Assembly: GCA_965261545.1 (NCBI GenBank)
Contig: CBDHDF010000011.1
Span: 832,001 to 896,000, forward strand
DNA length: 64,000 nucleotides
Reading direction: 5' to 3'
Source of the DNA: Bdellovibrionales bacterium
Lineage (GTDB): Bacteria; Bdellovibrionota; Bdellovibrionia; Bdellovibrionales; UBA1609
The translations under genes were made by a program, and so were the position numbers. This document shows positions 5,273 through 62,700 of the stretch, piece by piece (position 1 is the first letter of the stretch; every line of letters begins with the position of its first letter). Below the pieces are notes generated by a model. It was not told where the DNA came from and ran no database searches. It saw nothing but the letters and a program-made list of their open reading frames with translations.

Positions 5273-7417
5273 GTTTCTGTCCAGAAAGGCCCATTTTTTG
5301 TTCTCTGACACTCCCCATTGAGCCTCCCAATGCCTCAATGGGGGAGTGAGAGTTGGAGATTTGCCACACAAACTCTACAGATTAAGGGGAAAAAGGTCTT
5401 TAAGCGACTTGCGCCCTAGTTTTTTCGATTTGAAGACGCACCCCTACCTTTGGAAGATTTTAGCACCTTCGACCTGGTCCATTGCTGTTATTCCTAATGG
5501 ATAAATTTAGGTGACAGTTGATAATTCATGTCTTGCCAAGACAACAAAATTATAGGCACAAACGGCATTCTTTACATACCTCTTAAAACCATCATGCCCT
5601 TTCCAGTAAGCAACTCTCATACCAAAACATCTCTTAAGGAATGAAATAACAGCCTCTATTCCGGCTCTCCAATTGAGAAGATTTTTAAAGACCCAAGCAC
5701 TTTTAACCATCTTTAATATTTTCATTCCTTTTTTTTCTGGGAAGCAAACATCTTTAGCCCCCATCTCTTTGGCCTCTTCAAGATTTTCTTTTGAAGCAAA
5801 CCCACCATCTGCACTTACTTTTACAGGGCAAGCCCCATAGGTTTGTGTCACTGAATTCATAACTTTTAAAAACATATCAGAGTCTGCGGGGTTGCCATCA
5901 GGGATCTGACAATCTAAAATCATGTTGCTTTGCCCTGAGGTCAGAAAGATTTTATGCCCAAACTCGACTTCTCTTTGCCCCTTTACAATAATGTCTGTAT
6001 GCGGTTCAAAGATGGATAGGACCTTTTTTTCAGAGGATACTTTTTTCCCCTCAATAACTCTTTTTTGAGTTTGAAAGATGATTTTTTCCAGGTAGAAGGC
6101 AACATTTTCTAACTGTTTTAGACTCTTTTTCAAAGCATTCATCTTCACACATTTTTGTTCTTTTTTTATCTTTCTGATGGTATCAGGTAATCCTTTGTTC
6201 AATTTGGTAGCGATTTTTAAAAGCTCCTTATAGCAAGGTAGTCTTTCCGCATCATTTTTGGAATTATTAATTTTGTAAAGCAAGGTTTTTGCTCTCTTAA
6301 GATCTTCTCTTGAAATAAGTCGCCAAAAATCTTTCATGACATTTTTACGAACTTTTTTAAATTCTCTTTCTGTAACTCTTATGCAGTCATATAAAAGCGA
6401 TGCATCCGTTGGATGATGAATATTTGATTTCGTCACTGTACTGTCCAATCTCATTTTCTTACACGGCTCAATCTTTTGATCTCTTGCATCTGAAACTAAA
6501 GAGGCGCTAATAATTCCCCAAGTTTCTTCACTTATTTGAACAATCAAGTCCTGTAAGGTGGAGTGAGCGTAATTTTCTTCCAATTCAAGGCCCAGAAAAG
6601 CTCTGGTGGATACTGAATCGACAAGATTAAAGGCTAACGCACGATAGGAAAGACCTCTTATGGATTTAAGAATAGCCACCTTGAGAACTTGCTCCGATGT
6701 CATACCAATATCACCAGAATCTTTCTTTTCTTTAACAAGGTCTTCATGAACCATATGGGCAAACTCTGGATGGCGATCAATGATGTTATTAATTTGCTGC
6801 AATTCTGTACTGAGTTGGTGGTTAGGATATTGGGAAAAGAGTCCCAACTGTGTCTTCTTCAAATGGCGCATAGTCCCCCCTTTGGTGAAAGTTTCTCTTT
6901 AATTTTTATATTAACATACGTTTTTTTGAGGGAAAAAAGTGAGCAAGGATGTCTTTTAAGAAGAAAAAAATCAGAGAGGTTCTCGGAGAACATGGATAAG
7001 AATTCTACCTCATAGAGAGGTTCCCACGCCTCCTAAAACCTACATAAAAAATAAATGAAGAATAAAATATCAAAAATTATTTCTCTGAAAAAACACGTCA
7101 AGTATTTTTTGAAGTTGATGCGCAACGTAATGTTATTTCCCTGAAGGAGGTTTGAAATCACCACGGTGGAAACACAGGTTGATCCAACTCTTCCTCTCAT
7201 ATCAAGTAACCAGTTGATAGCCACATAAGTCACTGAAAGGGAGGGGCTGTGAAAGGTTCGTCAAGAGAGGGGGGGGAACTTATTTTATTTTTCCGTTTTA
7301 TGTAAGTAACTGAATTTACACGGATTATGTTTGATGGACTCCATTTTAAAGCATAAAATCTAAAGGGAAGGCATGTAAATACTTAAAACTACTTAACTTT
7401 CTTCCCTGGACAGGAAC
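5273..7417 (-). mobile_element. ISNCY-type DDE element, copy 1 (intact)
   Basis: Ends GTTTCTGTCCAG / CTGGACAGGAAC; 6-bp TSD TATTTA at 5267-5272 and 7418-7423. Confidence 0.9.
5507..6871 (-). CDS. ISNCY/IS5-like DDE transposase (454 aa)
   Basis: RLDSTV, SIFEPHT, EFGHK, SADGGF and RAGIEAVIS motifs; four copies in the window. Confidence 0.88.
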   Translation of the reverse strand: MRHLKKTQLGLFSQYPNHQLSTELQQINNIIDRHPEFAHMVHEDLVKEKKDSGDIGMTSEQVLKVAILKSIRGLSYRALAFNLVDSVSTRAFLGLELEENYAHSTLQDLIVQISEETWGIISASLVSDARDQKIEPCKKMRLDSTVTKSNIHHPTDASLLYDCIRVTEREFKKVRKNVMKDFWRLISREDLKRAKTLLYKINNSKNDAERLPCYKELLKIATKLNKGLPDTIRKIKKEQKCVKMNALKKSLKQLENVAFYLEKIIFQTQKRVIEGKKVSSEKKVLSIFEPHTDIIVKGQREVEFGHKIFLTSGQSNMILDCQIPDGNPADSDMFLKVMNSVTQTYGACPVKVSADGGFASKENLEEAKEMGAKDVCFPEKKGMKILKMVKSAWVFKNLLNWRAGIEAVISFLKRCFGMRVAYWKGHDGFKRYVKNAVCAYNFVVLARHELSTVT

Positions 7418-38415: not shown

Positions 38416-39159
38416 ATCGAGTGGAACGGGGGAATTGCACCCCCGAGCCCTCACAGATCCCCGCAGGACATTCTCATGTCACGGGGCTCCTATCCTAACA
38501 ACCTACGGAGGGGCCACTCGCCAATGGACAAACAGTTGTGGCCTTGCACGGGCAAAGCTCTTACACCATTTGTAGGCTCGACGGAAGCTTCCTCTCAAGC
38601 TTTTGAGGGTTCGGCGCGCCCATCTCATGAGTGCTCCGTTGAATCTGTGAAGAACAATGTACATTGCTGAAGGGGAGAACTTACCATAGTAATTGTACCA
38701 CCCTCTAAGAATGGGATTCCACTTCTTGGCAATATCTTCCATGGAGAGATGACTGCTCAAACGCACCTTCTCCTTGCGAATTTTATCATTCATTGCTTTC
38801 TTGGCCTTATTGCTTACGGCAGGAAGGTAATTTATAAAATCCTACCCCCTATAATTCCTTGCTGGCCTCGGCTTAAAGGTGTAACCGAGAAAATCGAAGT
38901 TGACTTTCTCTCCTTTCAACCTGCGTCTTCCTGACATTTGGCAATGAATAATGTGCGTCTTCTTTGGGTGAATTTCCAACCCCACTTCGCAGAGCCTTTC
39001 CTCCAATGCCCGTCTCATTTGGCTGGCTTCCTTCTTTGTGCGGCAGTGAATGACAGCGTCATCTGCGTACCGTACAAATGGGGATTCAGGATGATTCCTG
39101 GCCATCCATATATCGAAGGCATAGTGGAGAAATAGATTACTTAGCAGGGGTGAAGCAAC

Positions 39160-41099
39160 TCCCCGGACACAATAGACAACTTTTCCATTGAAATTTCCAT
39201 AAATATATATAATCATTCACTTTATGCAATTGGTCGTAAATATGCTCGCTATCGTTGGCATCCACCTGAGGATTCTTCCCATTTAGCTTCGAACCATAGT
39301 CAAAGGAATGATAATGGCCCACCAAACAAAACATCAAAATCCATGGACAGCTCAGTTAAAAAGTGTCTATCAAAGCGACCAAGCCACACGGGTTCAACAG
39401 ACATACGAAGTTGTTGTTCCAAAAATAAAGAAACAATTAAAGCAGAAAGTAAAACAACAGAAAATAATGGAGGTTAAAAATGGAAACATCAGTAGCTCTT
39501 TATTGTCGAGTGTCCTCAGATAAACAAGCTCAAGAGGGAACCATTGATTCACAGATTTCTAGTCTTCACGATTTCGCTAAGGAACACAGCTTTTGTGTAG
39601 AGGAGGATCTTATATTTACGGATAATGGTGTGAGTGGTGCCACCCTTGTTCGTCCTGCTTTAGACTCCCTTCGCGACAAAGCTTTTTCTGGGGAGGTTAC
39701 AAAGGTACTTGTGTTATGTCCAGACAGATTAGCTCGTAAATATGCCCATCAATTGATTCTAATTGAAGAATTTCAGAGGCTAGGTGTTGAAATTATTTTT
39801 TCTAATAGAGATATTACAAATTCACCCGAAGATCAGCTTTTGCTACAAATACAAGGAGTCATTTCAGAATATGAAAGAGAAAAAATTATGGAAAGAAGTC
39901 GAAGGGGTAAACTTCAAAAGGCTTCTAAGGGCTTTGTTAGCGTTTTATGTGGAGCTCCCTATGGTTATATATATATTCCGAAAGCAGACTCCGCTGACGC
40001 ACGATATGAGGTCCATCCAGAAGAGTCTAAAGTTGTTAAAGATGTTTTTCAAATGTATTGCCGAAACAAACTAAGTATTGGAGCAATTGCAAAGGAATTA
40101 AATATAAGGGGGGTGCCTACTAAAAAACAACAAGGTATTTGGGAGCGTTCAACTGTTTGGTGTATGCTTAAAAACCCCGCTTATTATGGACAAGCTGCTT
40201 TTAGAAAGACTATCCAGGTAGAAAGGTTGCGTCCAACCAAGTTAGCAAGAGACAATAATTTTTATCCAAAAAATCCTAAATCAAGCTCTTCCGATCGAAA
40301 TAAAAAGGATTGGATATATATTCCCGTTCCATCTATAATTTCTTCAAAAACTTTTCAAGATGCATCCAGTCAATTGGAAACTAACAAAAAACTTTCCCCT
40401 CGGAATAATAAAAAATATGAGTATTTGTTAAGTGGTCTTTTACGATGCAAAGAGTGTGGTTATTCGATCTATGGCAAACCCGCTTCTAATTCAAGGTATA
40501 AGCGTTGTTATTATCGCTGTATGGGACAAGATGGTCATAGATGGCCAGCTAAAGGTAGAGTTTGCTCATCTCATCCCGTAAGAGTTGAAGTTTTAGATGA
40601 CTTAGTTTGGGAACAAACAGTTAAATTACTTGAAAATCCTCAGGCAGTTATAGATGAGTATACAAATAGAATTCATGAGCAAAAAGGCCAACAACAATCA
40701 TTGGAAAAATTAATTGCAAAAAAGGCTCAGGAGATTCGTCAAATAACACATGAAAAGGAACGTCTCTTGGATCTTTATCAAAATGGAACTCTAAATCTAT
40801 CAGAAATAGAGTCACGATTAAAAAAAATAAGAGGCAAAATAAAGCAACTTGAAAATGAAAAGCAATCTTTAGAGTATGAGCAAAGGCAAGAAGGACAACA
40901 ATTACAGCTTGTAGATCAACTCCAAGAATTCCAAAAAAAAGTGAGTGCCAACTTAAAGGTATTGAGTTTTGAGCAAAAAAAGGAGATTGTAAGGCTACTG
41001 GTAAAGGAGGTTGAGGTGAACATTAAGACAAGTGAAATTGTGGTTCGACACGTTGTGCCAACATCCAAAAGTTTGCCATTGTGTCCGGGGAGTCACAAC
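39160..41099 (+). mobile_element. Minimal LSR element 1 (1940 bp)
   Basis: Shared CAACT at both junctions; perfect 16-bp inverted arms ACTCCCCGGACACAAT (39158-39173) and ATTGTGTCCGGGGAGT (41078-41093); removal restores RT codons QGSVASPL. Confidence 0.88.
39308..39523 (+). CDS. Small ORF overlapping the LSR1 start; possible accessory protein
   Basis: Position only. Confidence 0.35.
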   Translation: MIMAHQTKHQNPWTAQLKSVYQSDQATRVQQTYEVVVPKIKKQLKQKVKQQKIMEVKNGNISSSLLSSVLR

Positions 41100-41102
41100 T
41101 GA
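39480..41102 (+). CDS. Large serine recombinase (540 aa as integrated)
   Basis: YCRVSS, RPAL, DRLAR, PYGY, LKNPAY, CKECG...YYRC zinc ribbon and coiled coil; stop codon comes from target DNA. Confidence 0.93.
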   Translation: METSVALYCRVSSDKQAQEGTIDSQISSLHDFAKEHSFCVEEDLIFTDNGVSGATLVRPALDSLRDKAFSGEVTKVLVLCPDRLARKYAHQLILIEEFQRLGVEIIFSNRDITNSPEDQLLLQIQGVISEYEREKIMERSRRGKLQKASKGFVSVLCGAPYGYIYIPKADSADARYEVHPEESKVVKDVFQMYCRNKLSIGAIAKELNIRGVPTKKQQGIWERSTVWCMLKNPAYYGQAAFRKTIQVERLRPTKLARDNNFYPKNPKSSSSDRNKKDWIYIPVPSIISSKTFQDASSQLETNKKLSPRNNKKYEYLLSGLLRCKECGYSIYGKPASNSRYKRCYYRCMGQDGHRWPAKGRVCSSHPVRVEVLDDLVWEQTVKLLENPQAVIDEYTNRIHEQKGQQQSLEKLIAKKAQEIRQITHEKERLLDLYQNGTLNLSEIESRLKKIRGKIKQLENEKQSLEYEQRQEGQQLQLVDQLQEFQKKVSANLKVLSFEQKKEIVRLLVKEVEVNIKTSEIVVRHVVPTSKSLPLCPGSHN

Positions 41103-43899: not shown

Positions 43900-46608
43900 G
43901 AGGCTTTTCATTATTTTTTGGGCTGCCCCTCAATATGTCGTCTTAGACAATCTCAAGGAAGGTGTTATTAAGCCAGATATCTATGAGCCAACGCTGAACG
44001 CCGTTTATGGCGCTGTACTGACTCACTACGGGGTCGTTGCTGACCCGGCAAGAGTTCGTGATCCTGATAGGAAAGGAACCGTTGAGCACGCCATTCACCA
44101 CACCCAAGACACAGCACTGAAGGGTCGTTCATTTAAAACCATTGAGGAGCAAAATGAGTGGCTCATGCACTGGGAGCACACTTGGGCTCGCCCTCGAGTC
44201 CATGGTTTGCACCAAGCGGGTCGTTTCTGAGATGTTTGAAGAAGAGAGCCCCTTTCTCAAAAAGCTCCCCCAAAAGAAATTTGATTTTTTTAAACAAGAG
44301 ATACGAACAGTTGCAGACGATGGGCTCATTCAAGTTGGAAACAGTTACTATTGCGCCTACCCTTCTGATCTAAAGAGCCAAGTCATTGTGCGTATTTATG
44401 ATAAAGACATAGAGATTATGGACCCTGCCACGATGAGTGTGATCCGCCGCCACCAAAAAGCCACTCTCCCGGGGAGTCTCTCTTTGCTAGACAAAGATCG
44501 TGTTTATAATCCATTGTTAGGCGCCAATTAAAATTGGCCATTTTTAGAAGCCGTCGCCAATGAAAAACGGCCAGTTGATGATGTACTGATTTAGTTATTC
44601 TTCGTTCAGAGTTTAGTCAAGTGTCTTTATTTTGCTCATCATTTAACTCGGACTATGCCACAAGATTCTGAGGAATGATTTTCTGCCCACCACTTTTGGC
44701 ATGACCCCAAATGCATCCTTCAGCCCTATGGCAGAGGTAAATGGAGTATTTTTCAGGATTCCTTGGCGCAGCTAATGTCTAAAGCTCCGCGAGAGTGACG
44801 AGCAAATAGTACGGTAAAAGCCAGTTATCCATAAATTTATCCATGGCGACACTGCGGCTGTGACCCCGATGTCTAGCAACGCAGTGCTGCTGTGGATAAA
44901 TTTTGTGGATAACTGGCGAGTTCCTTCCCCAAAAGTGGGGATCTCTAATGAACTTCTTTGGTTGAACTTTCCTCTTTGCTCTGTTTAGACTTGGCTTTTG
45001 CCGATTCGGTTCTCCAACTTTCTTTTCCTTCAATGTTGAGGGTTTCACAGTTGTGAATAATTCGATCAACAGCAGCAGCGGTGGTAATAGGGTTAAGAAA
45101 CACCTTATCCCATTCAGAGTAAGTTAAGTTTGTAGTGATCATGAGACTTTTCCTTTCATATCGCTGAGATATGAATTGAAAGAAAAGATCTGCCCCCTCT
45201 GTGCAGGAAGCTGTATAGCCAAGTTCATCACAAGCAATAAGATCAAAACGGTCTAATTTCTTAAAAAGAGCATTCAATGAGAGTTCTTTCTTGCTTTCAC
45301 GCATTGTTTCAATAAGTTCATGAGTGGTGACCCATAAACATCGATAGCCTTGTTCACAGAGTGAACGAACTAGGGACATGGCCAAATGACTTTTCCCCAT
45401 TCCAAAGCTTCCGTAAAACACAACATTACAGGCTTTTCTGACCCACTCTCCCTCTGCCATCCAATTAATTTGCTGAGCTGTCACTCCCGTTCTTTTCTGG
45501 AAGTTATAAGTTTGGAGTGATTTAAGTTGAGGAAGCTTGGCCCCCTTAAGCAATCTTTTCACTCTCTGGGAATGCTTGTCAGCAAGCTCATTTTGAACGA
45601 GTATACCTAAATAGTTCCTGTCCAGGGAAGAAAGTTAAGTAGTTTTAAGTATTTACATGCCTTCCCTTTAGATTTTATGCTTTAAAATGGAGTCCATCAA
45701 ACATAATCCGTGTAAATTCAGTTACTTACATAAAACGGAAAAATAAAATAAGTTCCCCCCCCCTCTCTTGACGAACCTTTCACAGCCCCTCCCTTTCAGT
45801 GACTTATGTGGCTATCAACTGGTTACTTGATATGAGAGGAAGAGTTGGATCAACCTGTGTTTCCACCGTGGTGATTTCAAACCTCCTTCAGGGAAATAAC
45901 ATTACGTTGCGCATCAACTTCAAAAAATACTTGACGTGTTTTTTCAGAGAAATAATTTTTGATATTTTATTCTTCATTTATTTTTTATGTAGGTTTTAGG
46001 AGGCGTGGGAACCTCTCTATGAGGTAGAATTCTTATCCATGTTCTCCGAGAACCTCTCTGATTTTTTTCTTCTTAAAAGACATCCTTGCTCACTTTTTTC
46101 CCTCAAAAAAACGTATGTTAATATAAAAATTAAAGAGAAACTTTCACCAAAGGGGGGACTATGCGCCATTTGAAGAAGACACAGTTGGGACTCTTTTCCC
46201 AATATCCTAACCACCAACTCAGTACAGAATTGCAGCAAATTAATAACATCATTGATCGCCATCCAGAGTTTGCCCATATGGTTCATGAAGACCTTGTTAA
46301 AGAAAAGAAAGATTCTGGTGATATTGGTATGACATCGGAGCAAGTTCTCAAGGTGGCTATTCTTAAATCCATAAGAGGTCTTTCCTATCGTGCGTTAGCC
46401 TTTAATCTTGTCGATTCAGTATCCACCAGAGCTTTTCTGGGCCTTGAATTGGAAGAAAATTACGCTCACTCCACCTTACAGGACTTGATTGTTCAAATAA
46501 GTGAAGAAACTTGGGGAATTATTAGCGCCTCTTTAGTTTCAGATGCAAGAGATCAAAAGATTGAGCCGTGTAAGAAAATGAGATTGGACAGTACAGTGAC
46601 GAAATCAA

Positions 46609-46971
46609 ACGAGTCCATTACTTAATACCCCCGTCAACGACAGAGGTTTTAGAGAGCTAAGGGTCACGGACCCCTCCCATCCCCTTTATAGGAAGTCATT
46701 CAAGGTGATTTCCATACCTAAAAATCAGAAAAAATCTACTTTTGCTTTTGTTCAATACAAGAACCACATGACGCTACGCATACCATTGGCTTCTACCAAT
46801 CTGAACCCCAATCTCTACGATAGGCAGGCCCCAAGCAAACTTGGTATAGTTGCAATTCAGGAGCTAATTTCACTGACTCAACAACTGGAAGAGCAACTAT
46901 GTCAATTACACCAAAAGATGTCTGGCCAAGACTGCCAAAAGAAATTCAAAAGCAAGTCATCAAAGACTTAA
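46609..46971 (+). CDS. Accessory ORF whose start is displaced in the integrated state (VTDPSHPL motif, recalled as DUF5372/Y4bD-like)
   Basis: Frame open from the left junction; in-frame ATG and purine-rich RBS lie at the right end (49041-49056). Confidence 0.6.
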   Translation, partial: TSPLLNTPVNDRGFRELRVTDPSHPLYRKSFKVISIPKNQKKSTFAFVQYKNHMTLRIPLASTNLNPNLYDRQAPSKLGIVAIQELISLTQQLEEQLCQLHQKMSGQDCQKKFKSKSSKT

Positions 46972-47135
46972 CTTTAGCCATTGAGGAGATTATATATGAA
47001 AACATCGGAATTGATTACACCTATTCACTTAAAGAGAAAAGCCATAATATACATCAGACAGTCGACCCCTCAGCAAGCCATCAAAAACAAAGAAAGTCTC
47101 GACCTTCAATACTCACTCAGGCAAAGAGCTACTGA
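46899..47135 (+). CDS. Small ORF overlapping the LSR2 start; possible accessory protein
   Basis: Coupled position between the upstream ORF and the LSR. Confidence 0.4.
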   Translation: MSITPKDVWPRLPKEIQKQVIKDLTLAIEEIIYENIGIDYTYSLKEKSHNIHQTVDPSASHQKQRKSRPSILTQAKSY

Positions 47136-49041
47136 ATTAGGTTGGCAAGAAGATAGTATTGAAATTGTCGATGATGATTTGGGGATCACAGGAAGTAGTA
47201 TACAGTTTAGAGAAGGCTTCAAGAATATCCTTGCAGAAGTGACCTTGGAAAAAATTGGTATTATTCTATCGTACGATGTCACTCGTCTATCTAGAAACTG
47301 TACGGACTGGTACCAATTACTTGATCTGTGTGCTTTTAAGAATTGCCTCATTGCTGATAGAGAGTCTATTTATAACCCTTCTAATGTTAATGGAAGAATG
47401 TTACTCGGGTTTAAAGGTCAACTCTCAGAAATGGAATTATTTACGATACGCAATAGATTAACAGCAGGTCTTCTCAACAAAGCCAAGCGAGGAGATTTAG
47501 CTCTTAAATTACCAGTTGGTTTTATTCGAACAGAACAAGGTAAAGTGCTAAAAGATCCAAATAAAGATTTACAAGATCGCATAAATTTAGTATTTACTAT
47601 ATTCTTAAAACTGAAATCAGCCGGTAAGGTGTCGCGATTTTTTAACGATAACAACCTCTTACTTCCAAGAGTTGATTTTGTAAAAAGTATTCATTGGAAA
47701 AAAACATCCAAGGCAGCCATACTTTCTATTTTGAAGAATCCAGCTTATAGCGGAACTTTTGTATATGGCAAAGCTGAATACCGTAGAAAAGACTTAGCTG
47801 GAAAACTTAAGCGTACAAAGCTTCCACTTAATGAATGGAAAATTGTTGTGAAAGATAAATATCCTAAATATATCGATTGGAATACATTCTTAAAGATACA
47901 AGAAATTCTAAAAGACAACTACACTGAATATACTCGTAATAAAACAAGAGGCATACCTCGCCCTGGTAAGGCCCTCTTACATGGGATAGTCTATTGTGGA
48001 GAATGTGGCCACAAAATGTCAGTGCAGTATAAAACAGCAACTCGATACTTATGCAACTATCTACGCCAACAACATCGGGAACCTACTTGCCAATTCATTC
48101 CTACAGATCCAATCGATGATTATGTAGTAAACGCTTTTTTTAAGGTTCTTTCCCCTGTCGAGCTAGACTTGTATGCCAAGGCTTTAGAAAATAAGTCAAA
48201 AATTGACCAAGAGGTTTACAAATCACACATTCAGCAAATTCAGCGTTTAAGGTATGAAGCTCAACTGGTAGAAAAGAGGTATCGCAAAGTAGACCCTGAG
48301 AATAGACTTGTTGCAGATGAATTAGAAACACAATGGGAAGAGGCTTTAGTAATACTTAAAAAAGCCGAAGATCACCTAGAGAGGGTTAAGAATGAACAGC
48401 GTATTCCAACTGTGATCTCTCAAAAAATGAAAAGAGAATTTTCAGATTTGAATCAAAAACTACCTTCGCTATGGGAGGATAAGATATTGACCAAAGACAT
48501 GAAAAAGAAAATTCTTAGAACATTGGTTGAAAAGGTTGTCATTCACAGAAAGAAAAGAGATATGGTTGCACTGAGAATTGTTTGGATTGGAGGAGATACA
48601 ACAGAAGCTAGCATTCCAATCAAAGTTGGATCTTTTGATGAACTGTCATCTTCTGAAACGATAAAGAAAATAATTGCGCATCAGGTCAAGCTTGGGGTGT
48701 CTGATGAAGATATTGCCAAACTATTGACCCAAAAAGGATTCAGATCACCAATGGATACCACTTTTCTCAGAAATACTGTGAAGTCCTATAGACTAAACAA
48801 TAAAATCTATCGGAATCGAAAGCACTCTTTTCCGACCAAAGTCGAGGGAAGCCTCACAACATCTCAAATTGCAGCACTTATTGATGTTAAAGTTCATTGG
48901 ATTTATCACCATATTAAACAAGGGAGGATCATTGTCAAAAAACACGAGAAAACAAAGGCTTATCTCTTTCCAGATAAGAAAAAAACCATATCTGACTTTA
49001 AAAAACTTAAGTCCGGATCAATTAAAAAGCTACGTTACTAA
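46996..49041 (+). CDS. Large serine recombinase (about 681 aa) with C-terminal HTH-like extension
   Basis: YIRQST, DDDLG, VTRLSRN, LPVGF, ILKNPAY and CGECG...YLC motifs; RBS GAGGAG at 46983. Confidence 0.92.
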   Translation: MKTSELITPIHLKRKAIIYIRQSTPQQAIKNKESLDLQYSLRQRATELGWQEDSIEIVDDDLGITGSSIQFREGFKNILAEVTLEKIGIILSYDVTRLSRNCTDWYQLLDLCAFKNCLIADRESIYNPSNVNGRMLLGFKGQLSEMELFTIRNRLTAGLLNKAKRGDLALKLPVGFIRTEQGKVLKDPNKDLQDRINLVFTIFLKLKSAGKVSRFFNDNNLLLPRVDFVKSIHWKKTSKAAILSILKNPAYSGTFVYGKAEYRRKDLAGKLKRTKLPLNEWKIVVKDKYPKYIDWNTFLKIQEILKDNYTEYTRNKTRGIPRPGKALLHGIVYCGECGHKMSVQYKTATRYLCNYLRQQHREPTCQFIPTDPIDDYVVNAFFKVLSPVELDLYAKALENKSKIDQEVYKSHIQQIQRLRYEAQLVEKRYRKVDPENRLVADELETQWEEALVILKKAEDHLERVKNEQRIPTVISQKMKREFSDLNQKLPSLWEDKILTKDMKKKILRTLVEKVVIHRKKRDMVALRIVWIGGDTTEASIPIKVGSFDELSSSETIKKIIAHQVKLGVSDEDIAKLLTQKGFRSPMDTTFLRNTVKSYRLNNKIYRNRKHSFPTKVEGSLTTSQIAALIDVKVHWIYHHIKQGRIIVKKHEKTKAYLFPDKKKTISDFKKLKSGSIKKLRY

Positions 49042-50335
49042 GGGGGTATCAACATGAGTGATCAAATATTCATCATCCAACGGATGCATCGCTTTTATAT
49101 GACTGCATAAGAGTTACAGAAAGAGAATTTAAAAAAGTTCGTAAAAATGTCATGAAAGATTTTTGGCGACTTATTTCAAGAGAAGATCTTAAGAGAGCAA
49201 AAACCTTGCTTTACAAAATTAATAATTCCAAAAATGATGCGGAAAGACTACCTTGCTATAAGGAGCTTTTAAAAATCGCTACCAAATTGAACAAAGGATT
49301 ACCTGATACCATCAGAAAGATAAAAAAAGAACAAAAATGTGTGAAGATGAATGCTTTGAAAAAGAGTCTAAAACAGTTAGAAAATGTTGCCTTCTACCTG
49401 GAAAAAATCATCTTTCAAACTCAAAAAAGAGTTATTGAGGGGAAAAAAGTATCTTCTGAAAAAAAGGTCCTATCCATCTTTGAACCGCATACAGACATTA
49501 TTGTAAAGGGGCAAAGAGAAGTCGAGTTTGGGCATAAAATCTTTCTGACCTCAGGGCAAAGCAACATGATTTTAGATTGTCAGATCCCTGATGGCAACCC
49601 CGCAGACTCTGATATGTTTTTAAAAGTTATGAATTCAGTGACACAAACCTATGGGGCTTGCCCTGTAAAAGTAAGTGCAGATGGTGGGTTTGCTTCAAAA
49701 GAAAATCTTGAAGAGGCCAAAGAGATGGGGGCTAAAGATGTTTGCTTCCCAGAAAAAAAAGGAATGAAAATATTAAAGATGGTTAAAAGTGCTTGGGTCT
49801 TTAAAAATCTTCTCAATTGGAGAGCCGGAATAGAGGCTGTTATTTCATTCCTTAAGAGATGTTTTGGTATGAGAGTTGCTTACTGGAAAGGGCATGATGG
49901 TTTTAAGAGGTATGTAAAGAATGCCGTTTGTGCCTATAATTTTGTTGTCTTGGCAAGACATGAATTATCAACTGTCACCTAAATTTATCCATTAGGAATA
50001 ACAGCAATGGACCAGGTCGAAGGTGCTAAAATCTTCCAAAGGTAGGGGTGCGTCTTCAAATCGAAAAAACTAGGGCGCAAGTCGCTTAAAGACCTTTTTC
50101 CCCTTAATCTGTAGAGTTTGTGTGGCAAATCTCCAACTCTCACTCCCCCATTGAGGCATTGGGAGGCTCAATGGGGAGTGTCAGAGAACAAAAAATGGGC
50201 CTTTCTGGACAGAAACTAAATACTGTTCATACGTCTTTTTTGTTTTTTCGGCAACTCTAGCCGTTGCAACATATTCATCCGCCATCGCTGGAAGTCGGAG
50301 TTTTTTAAGAGAACCTATAAGTTCTTCGTGATTCA

Positions 50336-53828: not shown

Positions 53829-55199
53829 GTGTTCTTAATGAATAGAAAAGAAGAAATAGAATATAAAGAAATAAGAGAATTGATTGATGAAATCATTAAC
53901 AAATGCAGATATAAAAAGCCTATATTTAGAGGAATAAGTAAAATACAGGAATCAGATAGGGAAATTAGCTCTCCTTTATTTAGGAAATTTAATAAAAATA
54001 AAGAAGTGAAGGGTAAATCTCTTACACTTTTATATGCAGAAAGAGATATTATAGAAAATGCAAGAATTTACTTCCCTTCAAATACAAGTGATGTGGAAAT
54101 TTTAACTGAGTTACGTCACTATGGCGCCGATGTGAATCTTATTGATTTTAGTCGTAGCTTATATGTTTCTTTATTTTTTATTTGTAATAAAAATTATAAA
54201 GAAGACGGCCAACTTATAATATTGGAAACTGATGGCCTAAAGATTCGCAAAGAAATTAAATATCCAGAGAATAGTCTCGAATTAAAATTTAAAAAAAGTA
54301 ATAAAGAAGATAGCGTCGAACAAGAGGTCAATTCAAAATATAAAAACAACCCTCAGATTATAGAACCTACACAAATATTTTCTAGCAAGAATAGAGTGAT
54401 ATCTCAATCAAGTATATTTGTTTATTGCTATAAAGGATATTTAGACAAAAAAAGTTGTATTAAAGAAATAATAAAAAAAGAATATAAAAAAGATATTTTA
54501 GATTATATAGAAAAATATCACAATATTTCCCTTAAAACTATTTACAACGATGTAATAGGTTTTATCAAAAGTAATAATGATAATGGCAACTATATACTCG
54601 CCCACAATCATTATACTCACGGAGAATATCTTTATAAGAAATTTAATAGAGAAGGAGATAAAGTAAAAGATGAAGTAAAATCTATTAACGAAATTATCAA
54701 TCAATATGACGAGGCAATTAATCTAAATCCTTACTATGTAGAAGCTTACGCAAGTCGTTCCTTGATGAAATTTATAATAATTCAAGATAAGGGTGCCCTT
54801 GAGGATATTAATAGATCTATTGAATTAGATTCTAATAATTCAATCCATTATTTGCAAAGAGGGTATATTAGATTAAAAAATAAGGATTTTGAAAATGCGA
54901 TGATTGATGTTGAAAAGTCTATTCAATTGGACCCCAGTAATAATCTATCTTACTGTCTCCGAGGTGAAATAAGGTTGGAACAAAAATTGTATGAAAAGGC
55001 TATTGATGATTTCAATACAAGTATTGAATTTCAAGAGCCTGTAAACTATATAGCTCATTATTCCCGAGGTCGGGCTTATTATTATTTAAGGCATTTTGAA
55101 AAAGCTCGTGATGACTTTAAAAAAGCTCTTACACTCAATCCACCTAAAGAAGGTAGAGAGATGTGTGAGAAATATATAAGTTGTATAAATAAATTGTAA
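53829..55199 (+). CDS. FRG-domain protein with C-terminal TPR repeats
   Basis: IFRG, LRHYGA...LIDFS..LYVSLFF and RVISQSS motifs; about five TPR units; last ~9 codons replaced by IS66; very AT-rich. Confidence 0.82.
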   Translation: MFLMNRKEEIEYKEIRELIDEIINKCRYKKPIFRGISKIQESDREISSPLFRKFNKNKEVKGKSLTLLYAERDIIENARIYFPSNTSDVEILTELRHYGADVNLIDFSRSLYVSLFFICNKNYKEDGQLIILETDGLKIRKEIKYPENSLELKFKKSNKEDSVEQEVNSKYKNNPQIIEPTQIFSSKNRVISQSSIFVYCYKGYLDKKSCIKEIIKKEYKKDILDYIEKYHNISLKTIYNDVIGFIKSNNDNGNYILAHNHYTHGEYLYKKFNREGDKVKDEVKSINEIINQYDEAINLNPYYVEAYASRSLMKFIIIQDKGALEDINRSIELDSNNSIHYLQRGYIRLKNKDFENAMIDVEKSIQLDPSNNLSYCLRGEIRLEQKLYEKAIDDFNTSIEFQEPVNYIAHYSRGRAYYYLRHFEKARDDFKKALTLNPPKEGREMCEKYISCINKL

Positions 55200-57195: not shown

Positions 57196-58683
57196 CTACT
57201 CCTTAGTAGGAAATAATTTTCTTGATAGTAAATGCTCTTGCTCAATGATTGATCCTAGGTTTAGTCTTATTCGAGGTAGAGCAGATTTTCTACCAAAATT
57301 AAAATCTATGACTCGACCATTATCACTTCTCAAGATTTCATCTCCAGAGCTTAAAGTCAAAGAAAATAGATCAAAGAATCTCCGCGGACCAACTCCTGTG
57401 AATGGTTCAAAGTGTAGCTTGTTTTTCTCATTCTTATCTTCTGAAATAGCATCATCATGCAATTTTTTAGCCAAACTTTTAGGGTAAGGCTCTACATAAA
57501 CGACTCTCTTAATTCCTGCTGAAATTATATGCTTCGCACAGTTGTGGCATGGGTAAGTTGTTGTAAATAATGACAACCCTTTGCTCTGTATTCCCAACCG
57601 GTTCATCAACAAAAGTGCAGCCATTTCAGCGTGAACAGCACGCCCATATTCTGTTATGCCTTTGAATTCGCTGTCATCAATTTCTCTTTTTATGATATCC
57701 TTAACTTCTTTAATTTTATTGCCCGCTATTTCTTTAAGCTCGCTGTCTGATGAGACCCCTTTAATTATTTCTTCTACGATCTCCTCTCTCCTTTTTTTAT
57801 TTGAATCATATCCTCTAGCGTAATCTCTTTGGTCCATCCCTGTAAGATAATCATCTGACCAATATTGGCCACCACCAAACTTTGGAGCGTCATTTGCTCC
57901 TTGGGCAACAATTTCCCCCTCTGAAGTAACAATGACTGCCCCCACTTGTCGAGACAAATCAGCAGATCTTAACGAGGCTGCGTACGCATGAAACATGGCA
58001 TACTCATCTTTATTAGGTGTGTGATATGGATGGCCAAATATTAAATCTATAAATCTAGATAGTTCTCTATCTAACCTAGTTTTATTATCAATTGGAATAA
58101 ATACATCAGACTTATGAAATGAATCACTCACCTTTTGTCCATATTTTTTTATGTTATCTTGCTCTAATTTTAGTAATTTCTTTGCATTATTTTCAGCAAT
58201 ACCTTCTTCCTTGTTAAGGTAATTTAGCCTCTCAGGTATATCACTATACAATCCTATTAAGAAGAAACTACTCCCATAGAGAGAGCGTATTTTTTCAATT
58301 TCTTTGTAGTGCTTAAATCCATTTATAAGGAACGCAGTTTTTTTGTTTCTCTCAGATTTGTCTTCCCTTAAAGAGTAGATACTAGAAATCGCTACTTCAG
58401 CTAAATAATCAGGCTTATTTTCATTTCTTAACTTATCTCCCATTTTGATTAATTCTTTCTTTCTCTCAAAAGGGGTCTCTGGAATTTTACCTTTGTCTTC
58501 TTTATACTTGTCCTCTAAAAACTTACTTATTTTAATGGGCTCAAGAATATAATTGTAATCTTTCAATATATTCTCTAGGGAATTTGTGAATTTTTTTACA
58601 TCACAACCCATTGGTGCAATGAGGCCCAAGTATATGTCGTTGTCATCGTCGTTGTTTTCTTTACTTCTCATCTTGTTGCTCAT
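57196..58683 (-). CDS. Anti-phage-type dCTP deaminase (kinase-like domain plus deaminase; AvcD-like)
   Basis: N-terminal LGLIAPMG and ..GDKLR; SADLSRQVGAVI, HAE, PCHNC and YVEPYPKS motifs. Confidence 0.88.
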   Translation of the reverse strand: MSNKMRSKENNDDDNDIYLGLIAPMGCDVKKFTNSLENILKDYNYILEPIKISKFLEDKYKEDKGKIPETPFERKKELIKMGDKLRNENKPDYLAEVAISSIYSLREDKSERNKKTAFLINGFKHYKEIEKIRSLYGSSFFLIGLYSDIPERLNYLNKEEGIAENNAKKLLKLEQDNIKKYGQKVSDSFHKSDVFIPIDNKTRLDRELSRFIDLIFGHPYHTPNKDEYAMFHAYAASLRSADLSRQVGAVIVTSEGEIVAQGANDAPKFGGGQYWSDDYLTGMDQRDYARGYDSNKKRREEIVEEIIKGVSSDSELKEIAGNKIKEVKDIIKREIDDSEFKGITEYGRAVHAEMAALLLMNRLGIQSKGLSLFTTTYPCHNCAKHIISAGIKRVVYVEPYPKSLAKKLHDDAISEDKNEKNKLHFEPFTGVGPRRFFDLFSLTLSSGDEILRSDNGRVIDFNFGRKSALPRIRLNLGSIIEQEHLLSRKLFPTKE

Positions 58684-59029
58684 AGATCATAATTTATTAA
58701 ATATATGCAAGGCCATTGCTGGGGAAAAGAACTGATGGGTACAAAGGTACAATAAGAAATAATTATAGTCAAACGGTCGAGTGGCCTGGCGCAGGGCAAT
58801 AACTCAGGTCTGCTCGCTTGTTTATTGATTTTATTGATGATCGACACAACGTCTTGAGTGAACCAAGTATCAGCCTGTTCTGGAAAATTTCTCTAATATT
58901 TCTCTTCCCTCCTGTAGGAGACTTGCCTAACAAGAAAGTGGTTGATATAGTTGTAAGCAAATGACTGTCAGACAGAAGATGACAGGGACCAGTGTATGAG
59001 TCATAAGTAATAGTGTTTGTGGCTCTGGT

Positions 59030-59232
59030 ATGTTCTTTGAAAATTTAATATGGATGACGACAGAAGAAGCGGCTCGGTATTTGCGTAAAAGTGCCAATGC
59101 TTTAAGAATCATGGTTTATAAAAGATTCTTAAGGTTAGAAAATTTCGTCGAAGACTCTGCTTTTTAAGAGGAATGAACTGGATGCCTTGATTGAAACCTC
59201 ACTTATTAAAGGAGGTTATTGTTATGGCAGTT
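59030..59232 (+). pseudogene. Excisionase-like HTH gene, frameshifted
   Basis: WMTTEEAARYLRKSANALRIMVYK continues in shifted frames to FKRNELDALIE just before the integrase. Confidence 0.6.
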
Positions 59233-60390
59233 AGTACATACAAGGAAAATGGTAGAGAATTTTATTGTGTTTATGTTCAAGCAAAAGGAAAAGAGGATAA
59301 AAATTTGAGACTTCAACGTAAGAGAAAGAAAATTGTTTCTTTTCGGGAGGCTCAAAAACTTGAAAAAGCTCTTTTCAAAGAAGTTATCGAGCAGATTGCA
59401 AAGATTGAAGGTCGCGGGTTGACTTGGCGAGAGATTATCGACAGATGGGAGATTAAAGCCCGTCGAGGGGATCTCGGAGACAAGTATCAAAACAATTACT
59501 TGATTCAAACTCATGTGAATCGGTTGAACGAATACACAAAGATTTGGCTTCAACGCAGAGCTTCTGATTTGACCAAAGGTGATGGAAGGCAGGTTTTAAA
59601 TGCTGCCAAAGCTGATGGTGTAACAGGAAGTTCTTTGAAGAAAATCAAAACTTCAGTGAATGTTGTTTTTAACTGGGGAATCGAAGAGAAGTATATTGTT
59701 GGTACATCTTCAACCCCAGTTGAGGGTCTTTGTGTTTCAGACAAAGTGGAGAAGGTTCCTCAAATTTTAACTCTTGAGGATATTCGGACTTTGCTTGGAA
59801 GGGCGTGCAAACTTGACCACCCTTGGTATCCCATCTGGGCATTTGCTTTTTTAACTGGTATGAGAAGTGGCGAGCTTAAAGCCCTACAGTGGAAGGATAT
59901 AGACCTTGAGAAGCGTATAATAACGGTTTCCAAGTCCTATAGCCCCCATTTAAAGGGTATTAAAGGCACAAAGGCTGGGTACTGGAGAAATGTTCCCATT
60001 TCACCGGAACTTGAAGGGATTATTTCCGGCTTAAAAGAAGGCCAGAAACTAACACCTAAAGACTTTGTGTTACCTCGTCACTACACTTGGACAAATGGGC
60101 AAGCTGGGGAGGTTCTCAGAGGCTTTTTGAAAGAGCAGGGGATAGACAAGGATATTGTTTTTCACACGCTCAGAGCTTGCTTTGCGACTCATATGCTAGC
60201 TCAGGGGGCCAATCAAGCCACTGTTATGAAAATCGGTGGATGGAAAGATATAAAGACTTTCCAGATTTATGTTCGATTGGCTGGTGTTGAGGTCCATGGG
60301 GCAACAGATATTTTAAGTGTCTTGCCTAAGATTCGACCTGTCACAACTGATAAAGTTGTGAGTTTAAGTGACCATGCGAGGAGAGCCTAA
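59224..60390 (+). CDS. Tyrosine recombinase/integrase
   Basis: TGMRSGEL, FHTLRACFAT and terminal Tyr in TFQIY; RBS GGAGG at 59211. Confidence 0.92.
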   Translation: MAVSTYKENGREFYCVYVQAKGKEDKNLRLQRKRKKIVSFREAQKLEKALFKEVIEQIAKIEGRGLTWREIIDRWEIKARRGDLGDKYQNNYLIQTHVNRLNEYTKIWLQRRASDLTKGDGRQVLNAAKADGVTGSSLKKIKTSVNVVFNWGIEEKYIVGTSSTPVEGLCVSDKVEKVPQILTLEDIRTLLGRACKLDHPWYPIWAFAFLTGMRSGELKALQWKDIDLEKRIITVSKSYSPHLKGIKGTKAGYWRNVPISPELEGIISGLKEGQKLTPKDFVLPRHYTWTNGQAGEVLRGFLKEQGIDKDIVFHTLRACFATHMLAQGANQATVMKIGGWKDIKTFQIYVRLAGVEVHGATDILSVLPKIRPVTTDKVVSLSDHARRA

Positions 60391-60542
60391 CCAGGCTTTC
60401 TCCACAAAAGAATTATTTTTTTGAATATTTCCTGAAATGTTTCTTCTGACTTCTAAAGTAATCCATATAGGAATCTCCATGTGAGGTGTGTTTCTGAGTA
60501 TTTCCTGAAAACGCTTTTCAGAGCTTCCAATTAGAGGGCCGG

Positions 60543-60785
60543 TTGTTAAAATCACTGAAGGTTTCCAATTCACCCCAGAAGGAATCAAAAAGGAGGAACA
60601 AGAAAACCCTCAGTCATGATGAAATTAGTCAAATGAAGGTTATTCTTCAGCCCGTACCTTTGAATGAAGCAAAGAATTACAATCGACTCATAAGGCTTTG
60701 TCAGCTTATTTATCCTCACCGAGGGTCTTTAGAGTCAGACTGTAGGAAAAAGGAAAAAGACACTAAAAAAAATAATTTTATGTGA
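60543..60785 (+). CDS. Small hypothetical ORF upstream of LSR3
   Basis: Position only. Confidence 0.3.
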   Translation: MLKSLKVSNSPQKESKRRNKKTLSHDEISQMKVILQPVPLNEAKNYNRLIRLCQLIYPHRGSLESDCRKKEKDTKKNNFM

Positions 60786-60891
60786 GTGATGACGGAAAAT
60801 AACTGGACTTTTAAGTTGAAAATGACTAAAGTTAAAACACTAAAACATAGCTGCTCATTATTGATGGAAGCTGGAAAGGGAACGATAGAGT

Positions 60892-62700
60892 ATGAGAAAA
60901 GTAGCGCTTTATTGTCGAGTGAGTACCGATGAGCAGGCAAAGAATAAGGAAGGGTCTATCACTTCTCAAGTTCAGCGACTTCAAATGAAAGTCAATGAGA
61001 AAAACTCCTATGAGAATGGTCAATGGGGAAAAGTGGTGGGTATCTATAAAGATGAAGCTTATTCCGGGAAGAATACAGACCGCCCTGAATTTCAACGCAT
61101 GTTGACCGATGTAAAAACACAGCGAGTGAATACCATCCTTATTACGGAGTTGTCTCGATTGAGTCGCTCAGTCACCGATTTTTTAAGTTTCATTGAAGAG
61201 CTTGAAGACCATGGTTGTGACTTTATTTGCCCTCAATATGATTTTGATACCACAAGTCCCGCAGGTAAAGTCTTTATGACTATCATTATGGCCCTCGCCC
61301 AGTTTGAGCGAGAATTGACTGCCGAAAGAATTAGAAATAACTTTCACGCCCGTGCCTTACGGGGGTTGTCCAATGGGGGAGTGCCTTTTTTGGGCTATGA
61401 TAGAGACCCTACTCAGTCAGGACAACTTTTGGTGAATACCCATGAAGGGGTGATTGTAAAGAAAATATTTGACTTATACTTAGAGGGTAAGAGTCTTTCA
61501 GAATCGGCAAAATATCTCAATGAGGAAAACATTAAAAATAAGTCATGGATAAGCAAAGATGGAAAAGCCTGCGGAGGGCAGCCTTTTCGTGCCACTTCGG
61601 TTTTGCGAACACTGACCAACTATGCCTATATTGGAAAGCGAGAAGTAAACAAGAGAAACAAAAAATTAGTCTCGGAATCTCTCAAGACTGAAGAACAATA
61701 TACTCTTGTTGATTCCAGTTGGAAGGCCATTATAGACCCTGAAACTTTTCAAAAGGCCCAAACAAAGCTTAATATCAATAAGAAAGTTAAGAAGCCCATG
61801 AACTTTGATTTTTGCTATTCAGGCATCATGGTATGCGACGAGTGCGGAGCGCCTCTTTCTGGTAAGACGGGGACAGGTAGAAATAGAATCTATTTCTACT
61901 ACGGGCACAATAGAAAGACATCCTGTAAGGTTCAAAGATATGATGCTGAGGCTCTAGAAAAGGTTCTTCGTAGACAGCTTTTCACCCTTATCAACAATGA
62001 AGCCATGGGCAAGCAATTCATTCAAGCTTTGTCTGAACAGGTTCAAGGCTCTTCCAAAATCTCGGAGGCTCTCCTCAAAAAGACCCAGGAGGATATTGGA
62101 AAACGCCACTCTGAAAATGAGAGACTTATCAATCTTATGGCCGATCATGCAGAAGCCCAAGGGCTAGATGCCCTGCTGGGCCGTATCAAGAAAAATGAGG
62201 CCGAGATACTTGAGTTGAAAGCTCAACTGTCAAAACTTGAGGAACAGCGCATCATAGAAGCGGCGCAACCCACCATCGACCCACAGTTTATTCTCTCTGG
62301 CATCAAAAAGTTTCGCGAAGATGGGTTTCGCAAAGCTAAGGTTTCCAAGAAAAGAGCTATTGTGCAAGATGTTATCAAGACGATTCATGTCCATCCCGAT
62401 AATGTGATTCGCATTGATTTTTGGACCAGTGAGAGTCAGTCTAGCGTTGCTGTAAAGGATGCATTTCAATCAGGAGTTGTTCTCCCTTTTCAGCCCCTAG
62501 GTAGGCCACTTGAGGCATCTTTTCGTGAGAATGCCTCTCGTGAGGATAGGTTTTCCGATATAAAAAGAGCTGCAAATTTAGGTGTCTATATTCTCCCACA
62601 AGGGAGAATGACGCCCAAAAGCAGCCTCGGCGGCAGTTTCGGGCCTTCTCTGGCCCACGGTTCGTCCAGCGTTGTAACTGGTGGAGGTGGTGGGAATTGA
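60892..62700 (+). CDS. Large serine recombinase (602 aa) reading into the tmRNA 3' end
   Basis: YCRVST, DRPEF, LSRLSRS, LAQFERE and CDECG motifs; stop codon lies within the tmRNA complement. Confidence 0.92.
   Translation: MRKVALYCRVSTDEQAKNKEGSITSQVQRLQMKVNEKNSYENGQWGKVVGIYKDEAYSGKNTDRPEFQRMLTDVKTQRVNTILITELSRLSRSVTDFLSFIEELEDHGCDFICPQYDFDTTSPAGKVFMTIIMALAQFERELTAERIRNNFHARALRGLSNGGVPFLGYDRDPTQSGQLLVNTHEGVIVKKIFDLYLEGKSLSESAKYLNEENIKNKSWISKDGKACGGQPFRATSVLRTLTNYAYIGKREVNKRNKKLVSESLKTEEQYTLVDSSWKAIIDPETFQKAQTKLNINKKVKKPMNFDFCYSGIMVCDECGAPLSGKTGTGRNRIYFYYGHNRKTSCKVQRYDAEALEKVLRRQLFTLINNEAMGKQFIQALSEQVQGSSKISEALLKKTQEDIGKRHSENERLINLMADHAEAQGLDALLGRIKKNEAEILELKAQLSKLEEQRIIEAAQPTIDPQFILSGIKKFREDGFRKAKVSKKRAIVQDVIKTIHVHPDNVIRIDFWTSESQSSVAVKDAFQSGVVLPFQPLGRPLEASFRENASREDRFSDIKRAANLGVYILPQGRMTPKSSLGGSFGPSLAHGSSSVVTGGGGGN

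Follow-up and report, generated by a model that had tools for sequence, protein, structure and literature searches.

Attachment sites located within a gene and promoters formed at the junction of an excised circle are both already known. In mycobacteriophage BPs, attP lies inside the repressor gene 33, providing integration-dependent immunity (PMC4557955). The SSV-type "suicidal" integrases of archaea are encoded by a gene that stays intact only as long as the element is free and that integration interrupts (PMC8371274). Circle-junction promoters, namely Pcirc in ICEclc (PMC5812530) and P3'end in ICEKp1 (PMC13023037), raise integrase expression.

Judging from its sequence, the element described here is a new variant of such att-split genes, in which a start codon is joined to its reading frame across attP. 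It occupies positions 46604-49066 of a 64,000-nucleotide stretch of a Bdellovibrionales bacterium genome (hereafter the window), is about 2.5 kb long, the size of an insertion sequence (IS), and comprises ORF1, a short ORF2 and a gene for a 681-amino acid (aa) large serine recombinase (LSR). TnpX of Tn4451/Tn4453, also a large serine recombinase, reportedly belongs to another circle-junction promoter system.

The element resembles BPs in that attP is located inside a non-integrase gene and recombination alters which protein is made. In the phage, however, a C-terminal degradation tag is lost on integration and the prophage protein becomes active, whereas here the start of ORF1 is removed and its protein would exist only on the circle; our element is moreover IS-sized, with att at codons 4-5 and a predicted beta-barrel rather than a helical repressor fold. 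With the SSV-type integrases it shares a gene that is whole only when free and split by integration, but there the tyrosine integrase itself is split, whereas here the serine LSR stays whole and it is an accessory gene whose start signal and first four codons are cut off. As with Pcirc, P3'end and TnpX, the joined ends would switch on expression upon excision; those systems act on transcription, whereas in this element the joint links a translation start to a frame, which would give a new protein. Large serine integrases that work with directionality factors (RDFs) have the same domain order, a symmetric attP of ~56 bp with a central dinucleotide, and small accessory proteins. The RDF genes described in that context are intact when integrated and drive excision (PMC12286644), in contrast to ORF1, which in the integrated state has no SD-led start before its conserved motif and does not share this trait of an intact gene. 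Literature searches, with subscription journals and ISfinder outside their scope, brought up no paper that describes this family or the supply of a start codon across attP.

The features of the locus, in window coordinates, are the following.

46161..46603, + strand: 5' half of the ISNCY transposase gene that the element interrupts, with the left arm of attB at its end; intact copies stand at 44-46 empty sites
46604..46609, no strand: attL core, with the crossover dinucleotide AA at 46608-46609, the centre of the arm symmetry
46610..46637, no strand: P' arm of attP, containing the inverted-repeat motif (46622-46631); doubles as ORF1 codons
46609..46971, + strand: ORF1 body, 120 codons, DUF5372-like, with no start of its own before the conserved motif
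46705..46707, + strand: internal GTG with a weak SD; would yield an 88-aa product from which the first strand is missing, as are the invariant D..HPL residues
46899..47135, + strand: ORF2, 78 aa, with its first ~33 residues conserved and a variable tail overlapping the LSR gene; carries the SD of the LSR
46996..49041, + strand: LSR, 681 aa, with resolvase, recombinase and zinc-ribbon domains, a long helical hairpin and an extra C-terminal helical/HTH-like region
49037..49064, no strand: P arm of attP, with the SD-like run at 49041-49046, the inverted-repeat motif at 49043-49052, the ATG at 49054-49056 and the first ORF1 codons
49061..49066, no strand: attR core, with the crossover dinucleotide AA at 49065-49066
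49054..49110, + strand: 18-aa peptide of the integrated state, read from the ATG in a frame that differs from that of the host transposase
49067..49982, + strand: 3' half of the interrupted ISNCY transposase gene, identified by family assignment and the restored frame

The element is inserted inside an ISNCY transposase gene and is bounded by a 6-bp direct repeat, the core, at 46604-46609 and 49061-49066; its removal in silico rebuilds an ISNCY transposase of 454 aa. No reading frame was needed to fix the ends, since 44 exact empty sites are present in the element's own genome (46 with a shorter anchor) and the empty-site joint is found in Logan contigs of all four runs examined, from one sample. 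Filled and empty sites coexist in both the genome and the Logan contigs. The genome carries eight full-length copies and three broken ones, and SNP patterns in filled versus empty IS copies are mixed and do not settle whether the eight are separate insertions. The LSR starts at ATG 46996, its stop ends at 49041, and a Pfam search recovered PF00239, PF07508 and PF13408, in this order and all above cut-off. This domain order and a symmetric att site with a matching central dinucleotide (AA at both ends of the element; matching centres in 84 of the 89 loci with both arms) are features of large serine recombinases. The predicted structure adds a long helical hairpin and a further C-terminal region. 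DUF4368, present in 63% of the multi-targeting LSR clade described by Durrant et al. (PMC10083194), is a point of difference, as no DUF4368 was found among the Pfam matches of the window LSR at E up to 1.

An earlier note, made from the window's sequence, had described the first ORF as open from the left junction without an ATG ahead of a conserved motif. This is what the sequence contains: from 46609 onwards, 120 codons run without interruption to a stop at 46971, and no ATG precedes the motif V-T-D-x-x-H-P-L. Downstream of the LSR stop (49041), a G-rich SD-like run is followed by an ATG at 49054. The note's central claim was that this ATG reads in frame into ORF1 once the ends are joined through the core, and recomputing it from the sequence gave the same result, with a 124-aa ORF on the joined ends and only 18 aa in the integrated state. 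The att cut falls at ORF1 codons 4-5, and integration removes the start. The proposed ribosome-binding site is more equivocal: the G-rich run is there, but the attP arms form an inverted repeat centred on AA (49043-49052 versus 46622-46631) and the run, at 49041-49046, is also part of this repeat, which the note does not mention. Its conservation alone is thus no proof of a ribosome-binding site, and conservation of the SD and ATG had to be separated from recombinase binding.

Single-protein searches with ORF1 or the LSR were too narrow to gather relatives, which were instead collected with an alignment of 32 LSR relatives. We examined 164 loci (80 from genomes, 80 from metagenomes, three plasmid loci and the window), and the LSR is complete in 141 of them. 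A right arm was recognised in 117, a left arm in 104 and both in 89, and dropping five loci with unequal central dinucleotides left 84 loci with 63 distinct attP sites. Arms were located by the repeat motif, and not by the ATG or the frame; the motif was derived from the same loci, and loci without a recognised arm were excluded. An ATG stands at -11 to -9 in 63/63 distinct rebuilt attP sites, while the mirrored position on the other arm is an ATG in only 3/63, showing that arm symmetry does not demand it. In all 60 attP sites with the V-T-D-x-x-H-P-L motif, the ATG is in frame and open to the motif, and the other two frames contain stops in 39 and 60 of them. When left arms are taken alone, 92 of 92 distinct arms are in frame (three loci lacked the arm), with spacings of 53-83 nt that change in steps of three, the frame being kept through indels. 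The in-frame ATG that the earlier note proposed to look for among relatives is conserved.

These relatives are diverse, as the 54 aligned LSRs share 47-95% identity (median 60%; 18 clusters at 70%), the hosts span many phyla and the split layout also occurs in Microvirga. An element on pNGR234a of Sinorhizobium fredii NGR234 (NC_000914.2) combines a DUF5372 gene and a recombinase gene in the same order, with the same split start and an ATG 11 nt before the crossover. It differs in an LSR of 33% identity, a length of ~3.3 kb, two more ORFs and a transposase target, and its annotation does not mention the split; its LSR stop and ATG overlap, and the exact position of its left crossover is ambiguous among in-frame choices. 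Its two genes are presumably those known as y4bA/y4bD. Altogether, the comparison of sequences confirms that the split layout of ORF1 is real, far beyond chance. The LSR may nevertheless bind its two arms unequally, so that invariance of the ATG alone is no proof that it is used as a start.

We further investigated whether the ORF1 body evolves as a protein, using dN/dS over 19 disjoint pairs of relatives. The ratio is 0.11 for residues 15-32, which lie upstream of GTG 46705, 0.28 for the linker and 0.19 for the barrel, against 0.12 for the LSR, and synonymous change in these three parts of ORF1 is similar to, or as high as, that of the LSR. The att arm and the ORF2 overlap give higher ratios, 0.70 and 0.85, and their synonymous change is lower, a pattern that DNA in dual use should show. 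Purifying selection upstream of GTG 46705 means that an internal start there, which the earlier note had named as a result that would speak against its reading, does not explain the gene. In 50 of 60 elements the stretch ahead of the motif is devoid of in-frame ATG, GTG and TTG codons, and in 0/60 does it contain an SD-led internal start. A host ATG is in frame upstream in 6/60 integrated copies, and an SD-led start lies within 20 codons from the motif in 5/60, including the window, where the product from GTG 46705 would lose invariant residues. The ATG, the frame maintained through indels, the lack of SD-led early starts and the selection upstream of the GTG all support the idea of a circle-specific gene put forward in that note, and ORF1 is very probably gated by circularisation, that is, made only from the excised circle.

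The strength of the SD does not distinguish the two arms, which speaks against a separately selected SD on the P arm: the mean duplex energy of anti-SD pairing is -8.3 on the P arm and -8.9 on the mirror, with stronger pairing on the P arm in 25/63, although position -20 is A in 39/63 P arms and G in 63/63 mirrors. A promoter-site scan, which covered the integrated sequence only, gave 8 sites versus 9.0 expected by chance, and no conserved sigma-70 promoter was found upstream of ORF2, with 6 scattered sites in 63.

Joined ends were searched for in several collections. None were found in the element's own genome, in 163 loci or in 50 genomes, the last searched with a pattern that matches 45 of the 63 rebuilt sites. 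The circle joint was likewise not found in the Logan contigs of the four runs from one sample, a type of assembly that drops rare forms. Three scans of viral contigs gave no true match, the single match being a chance one in a phage gene, with no LSR there. At the protein level, gene callers assign mixed starts among 150 representatives of 859 profile matches; one of the 150 passed a junction-start test and two more looked alike by eye. The public protein P0152 has an N-terminus like that of the junction protein rebuilt for locus L020 and is encoded on a 2,600-bp Logan contig, while elements of the L020 and L102 types measure 2,567 and 2,569 bp; the N-termini of P0137 and P0247 are similar by eye and failed the junction-start pattern. 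P0152 thus hints at the existence of joined ends in DNA form.

The label "DUF5372-like" that the earlier note gave to ORF1 stands for the relatives, 38 of 58 aligned ORF1 bodies matching DUF5372 (PF17342) at E up to 0.1 (best 1.4e-05), and for pNGR234a. The window ORF1 itself has no match to PF17342 in Pfam, and its nearest Atlas clusters are DUF5372 at 0.92-0.93. No NCBIfam family was found for it, it was not found in the 30 related genomes searched, and a literature search with subscription journals outside its scope found nothing linking DUF5372 or y4bA with a recombinase. The model of ORF1 (mean pLDDT 76, pTM 0.47) predicts a four-stranded barrel, with pLDDT 82-96 over residues 21-70, and one long helix, and five residues are invariant. 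The predicted fold is an SH3/KOW-like barrel plus helix, the best fold matches, all weak (Z at most 5.0), being SH3/KOW-like. A sequence search of solved structures gave no relative of ORF1 (best E 0.18), and Foldseek with the model gave no match at E up to 0.001. ORF2 begins with a conserved stretch of 33 residues in 53 aligned elements, with an amphipathic-helix pattern, and this small, helical protein is likely a candidate excision cofactor.

The order of genes around the junction is close-packed. The LSR stop precedes the crossover in 60/60 elements; from this stop to the ATG downstream, the distance is 9-13 nt in 33 elements and 35-104 nt in 7, and in the other 20 the stop and the ATG overlap. 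At the other side, the ORF1 stop falls within -3 to +4 nt of the LSR ATG in 34/60 and, in the window, 24 nt upstream of the LSR start. Judging from this spacing, the genes would form a closed chain on the circle.

These arrangements suggest the following course of events. The DUF5372-like gene contains attP, the right arm carrying its start codon and the left arm its body. In the integrated state, ORF2 and the LSR would be made from their own starts while the right-end ATG reads a short out-of-frame peptide. The LSR would excise a 2,457-bp circle, on which its stop comes to lie just before, or overlaps, the ORF1 start, making ORF1 the next cistron; ribosomes translating ORF1 would pass over the beginning of ORF2 and terminate close to, or right at, the start of the LSR gene. 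The ORF1 protein may then bind the LSR or ORF2 so that attP x attB recombination is favoured. Insertion splits ORF1 again, which would shut the switch off. We put at about even the chance that ORF1 is such a post-excision switch, made only on the circle and turning the LSR towards re-integration; a pro-integration role of ORF1, taken by itself, we hold at slightly under even. Re-integration is the preferred reading because the product cannot exist before excision, is lost on insertion and parallels the junction promoters that raise integrase. A more speculative extension, which we advance tentatively, is that the circle would be a closed loop of coupled cistrons in which excision is sensed by translation, that DUF5372 would be the first integration-promoting directionality factor (an anti-RDF), acting only after excision, and that these elements may be widespread, undescribed IS-sized parasites of group II introns and transposases.

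Among 80 distinct empty sites, 62 rebuild a D-I-x-x-x-F-D motif, which we take from the motif and the flanking translation to be that of group II intron reverse transcriptases (RTs). Insertion is antisense in 60 of them (centre AA) and sense in two (centre TT), and the other 18 targets are different or imperfect, including the ISNCY site of the window. Target arms share a degenerate DNA pattern, readable perhaps by the LSR alone. The main text of Durrant et al. does not mention reverse transcriptase or group II targets, and its supplementary LSR tables may list members (PMC10083194).

Of the competing explanations, the one that survives best, though we consider it unlikely, is that ORF1 is circle-gated but acts as an excision-type directionality factor, which would keep the circle free and, acting in trans, induce sister copies to excise, with bursts of movement as the outcome. 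RDFs are described as binding the coiled coil and/or DBD2 (PMC12286644) and as sharing no common fold (PMC11795197), ORF1 is small and always located beside an LSR with a long helical hairpin, and its element has eight full copies in this genome. However, a factor without a start when integrated cannot trigger the first excision, a protein that blocked integration on the circle would, unless short-lived, bring the life cycle to a halt, and ORF2, with its own start, is a candidate for that role. We find it somewhat less probable still that ORF1 is a circle-specific target-finding or transcription-linked factor, whose barrel would attach to RNA polymerase, to RNA or to target DNA and guide the circle towards genes of introns and transposases. 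Its best fold matches do include the KOW domains of Spt5 and NusG (Z 4.5-4.9), and some members use genes other than the dominant RT motif, here the ISNCY transposase; yet a Z under 5 reflects a common small barrel and shows no function, and the LSR alone could read the pattern of the target arms. It is improbable that the protein has little role and that only the act of translating ORF1 matters, translational coupling setting the output of ORF2 and the LSR on the circle: the overlap of ORF1 with the ORF2 start and its frequent ending at the LSR start would suit such coupling, but the five invariant residues, the confident barrel and dN/dS of 0.11-0.19 point to a working protein. That an internal or non-standard start yields ORF1 from integrated copies, the in-frame ATG being a by-product of att-site conservation, we regard as very improbable, for while a few elements have a start such as GTG 46705 with its weak SD shortly after the motif begins and the SD forms part of the att repeat, the codons upstream of the GTG are under selection, most elements have no in-frame start before the motif and none an SD-led one, and every left arm keeps the frame to the far-end ATG.

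The preferred reading, a re-integration switch made on the circle, would provide DUF5372 with a true N-terminus and a testable context; the starts that gene callers assign to these proteins are arbitrary because the real start is located at the other end of the element. It would also describe a state sensor built on a start codon rather than a promoter, within a minimal three-gene system suited to direct tests of directionality control. The LSRs themselves are compact and appear aimed at one conserved intron RT motif, with changes of the central dinucleotide flipping orientation.

Att-split frames may be a recurring design, as a second, unrelated LSR element of the window also gains a tail on its circle. 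The earlier note had pointed to this pair, and the observation holds in the sequence: the second LSR lies at 39480-41102, with a 5-bp core at 39156 and 41096, and would reach 645 aa on the circle versus 540 when integrated, the gain being a C-terminal tail. Homology between ORF1 and this circle-only tail was not detected (hhalign probability 0.4%), and profile comparisons of the two gave no match in the genome or in the upstream regions of relatives of the second LSR. Since the tail is not detectably related to ORF1, the two elements would be, on present evidence, analogous designs. Removing the second element restores an RT frame.

Most relatives of the main element's large serine recombinase (LSR) have inserted at one and the same point, a motif in group II intron reverse transcriptase (RT) genes (att sites of loci L004-L163). 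Antisense insertions at this motif carry the crossover dinucleotide AA and sense insertions carry TT; judging from these att sequences, an element whose central dinucleotide changes appears to insert at the same RT site in the opposite orientation. Three loci have other centers (L017, L142 and L143; GA, AT), and their hosts are non-RT reading frames. At L017, the frame restored on removal of the element presumably resembles a transposase.

The main element itself (window 46604-49066) lies in an ISNCY transposase gene. In the attB arm, a T>G variant at window 46584 was found at four of nine filled left junctions, versus two of 46 empty sites, an excess that could reflect either a better target or shared descent. 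The same genome holds another full copy of the element (G000 C11 191227-193689), with ISNCY on its left flank and a different right flank. Sequence common to the ISNCY copies reaches far 5' of the transposase (45756-46160) and terminates at a C-run whose length varies between copies. IS density is very high across the window (1-64000), which holds 454-aa ISNCY ORFs at 5507, 10416 and 18605 along with IS21, IS4, IS256, IS66, IS110, IS1634 and ISL3 families.

At L015, L020, L080 and L138, a long spacer with hairpins separates the LSR stop from the ATG of the DUF5372-like gene; these predicted structures could possibly regulate the start at the circle junction.

A second LSR element (39156-41102) is hosted by a group II intron RT gene. 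Joining its ends extends the recombinase from 540 aa when integrated to 645 aa on the circle, in a frame that stops 2 nt upstream of the recombinase's own start. In its relatives, the recombinase frame likewise passes the right end, without a fixed stop.

Elsewhere in the window, a third LSR, 602 aa long, shares the interval 57196-62700 with a tyrosine recombinase-like gene and with an anti-phage dCTP deaminase whose match to NF041025 exceeds the cut-off, and an AT-rich gene at 53829-55199 encodes an FRG domain with TPR repeats.
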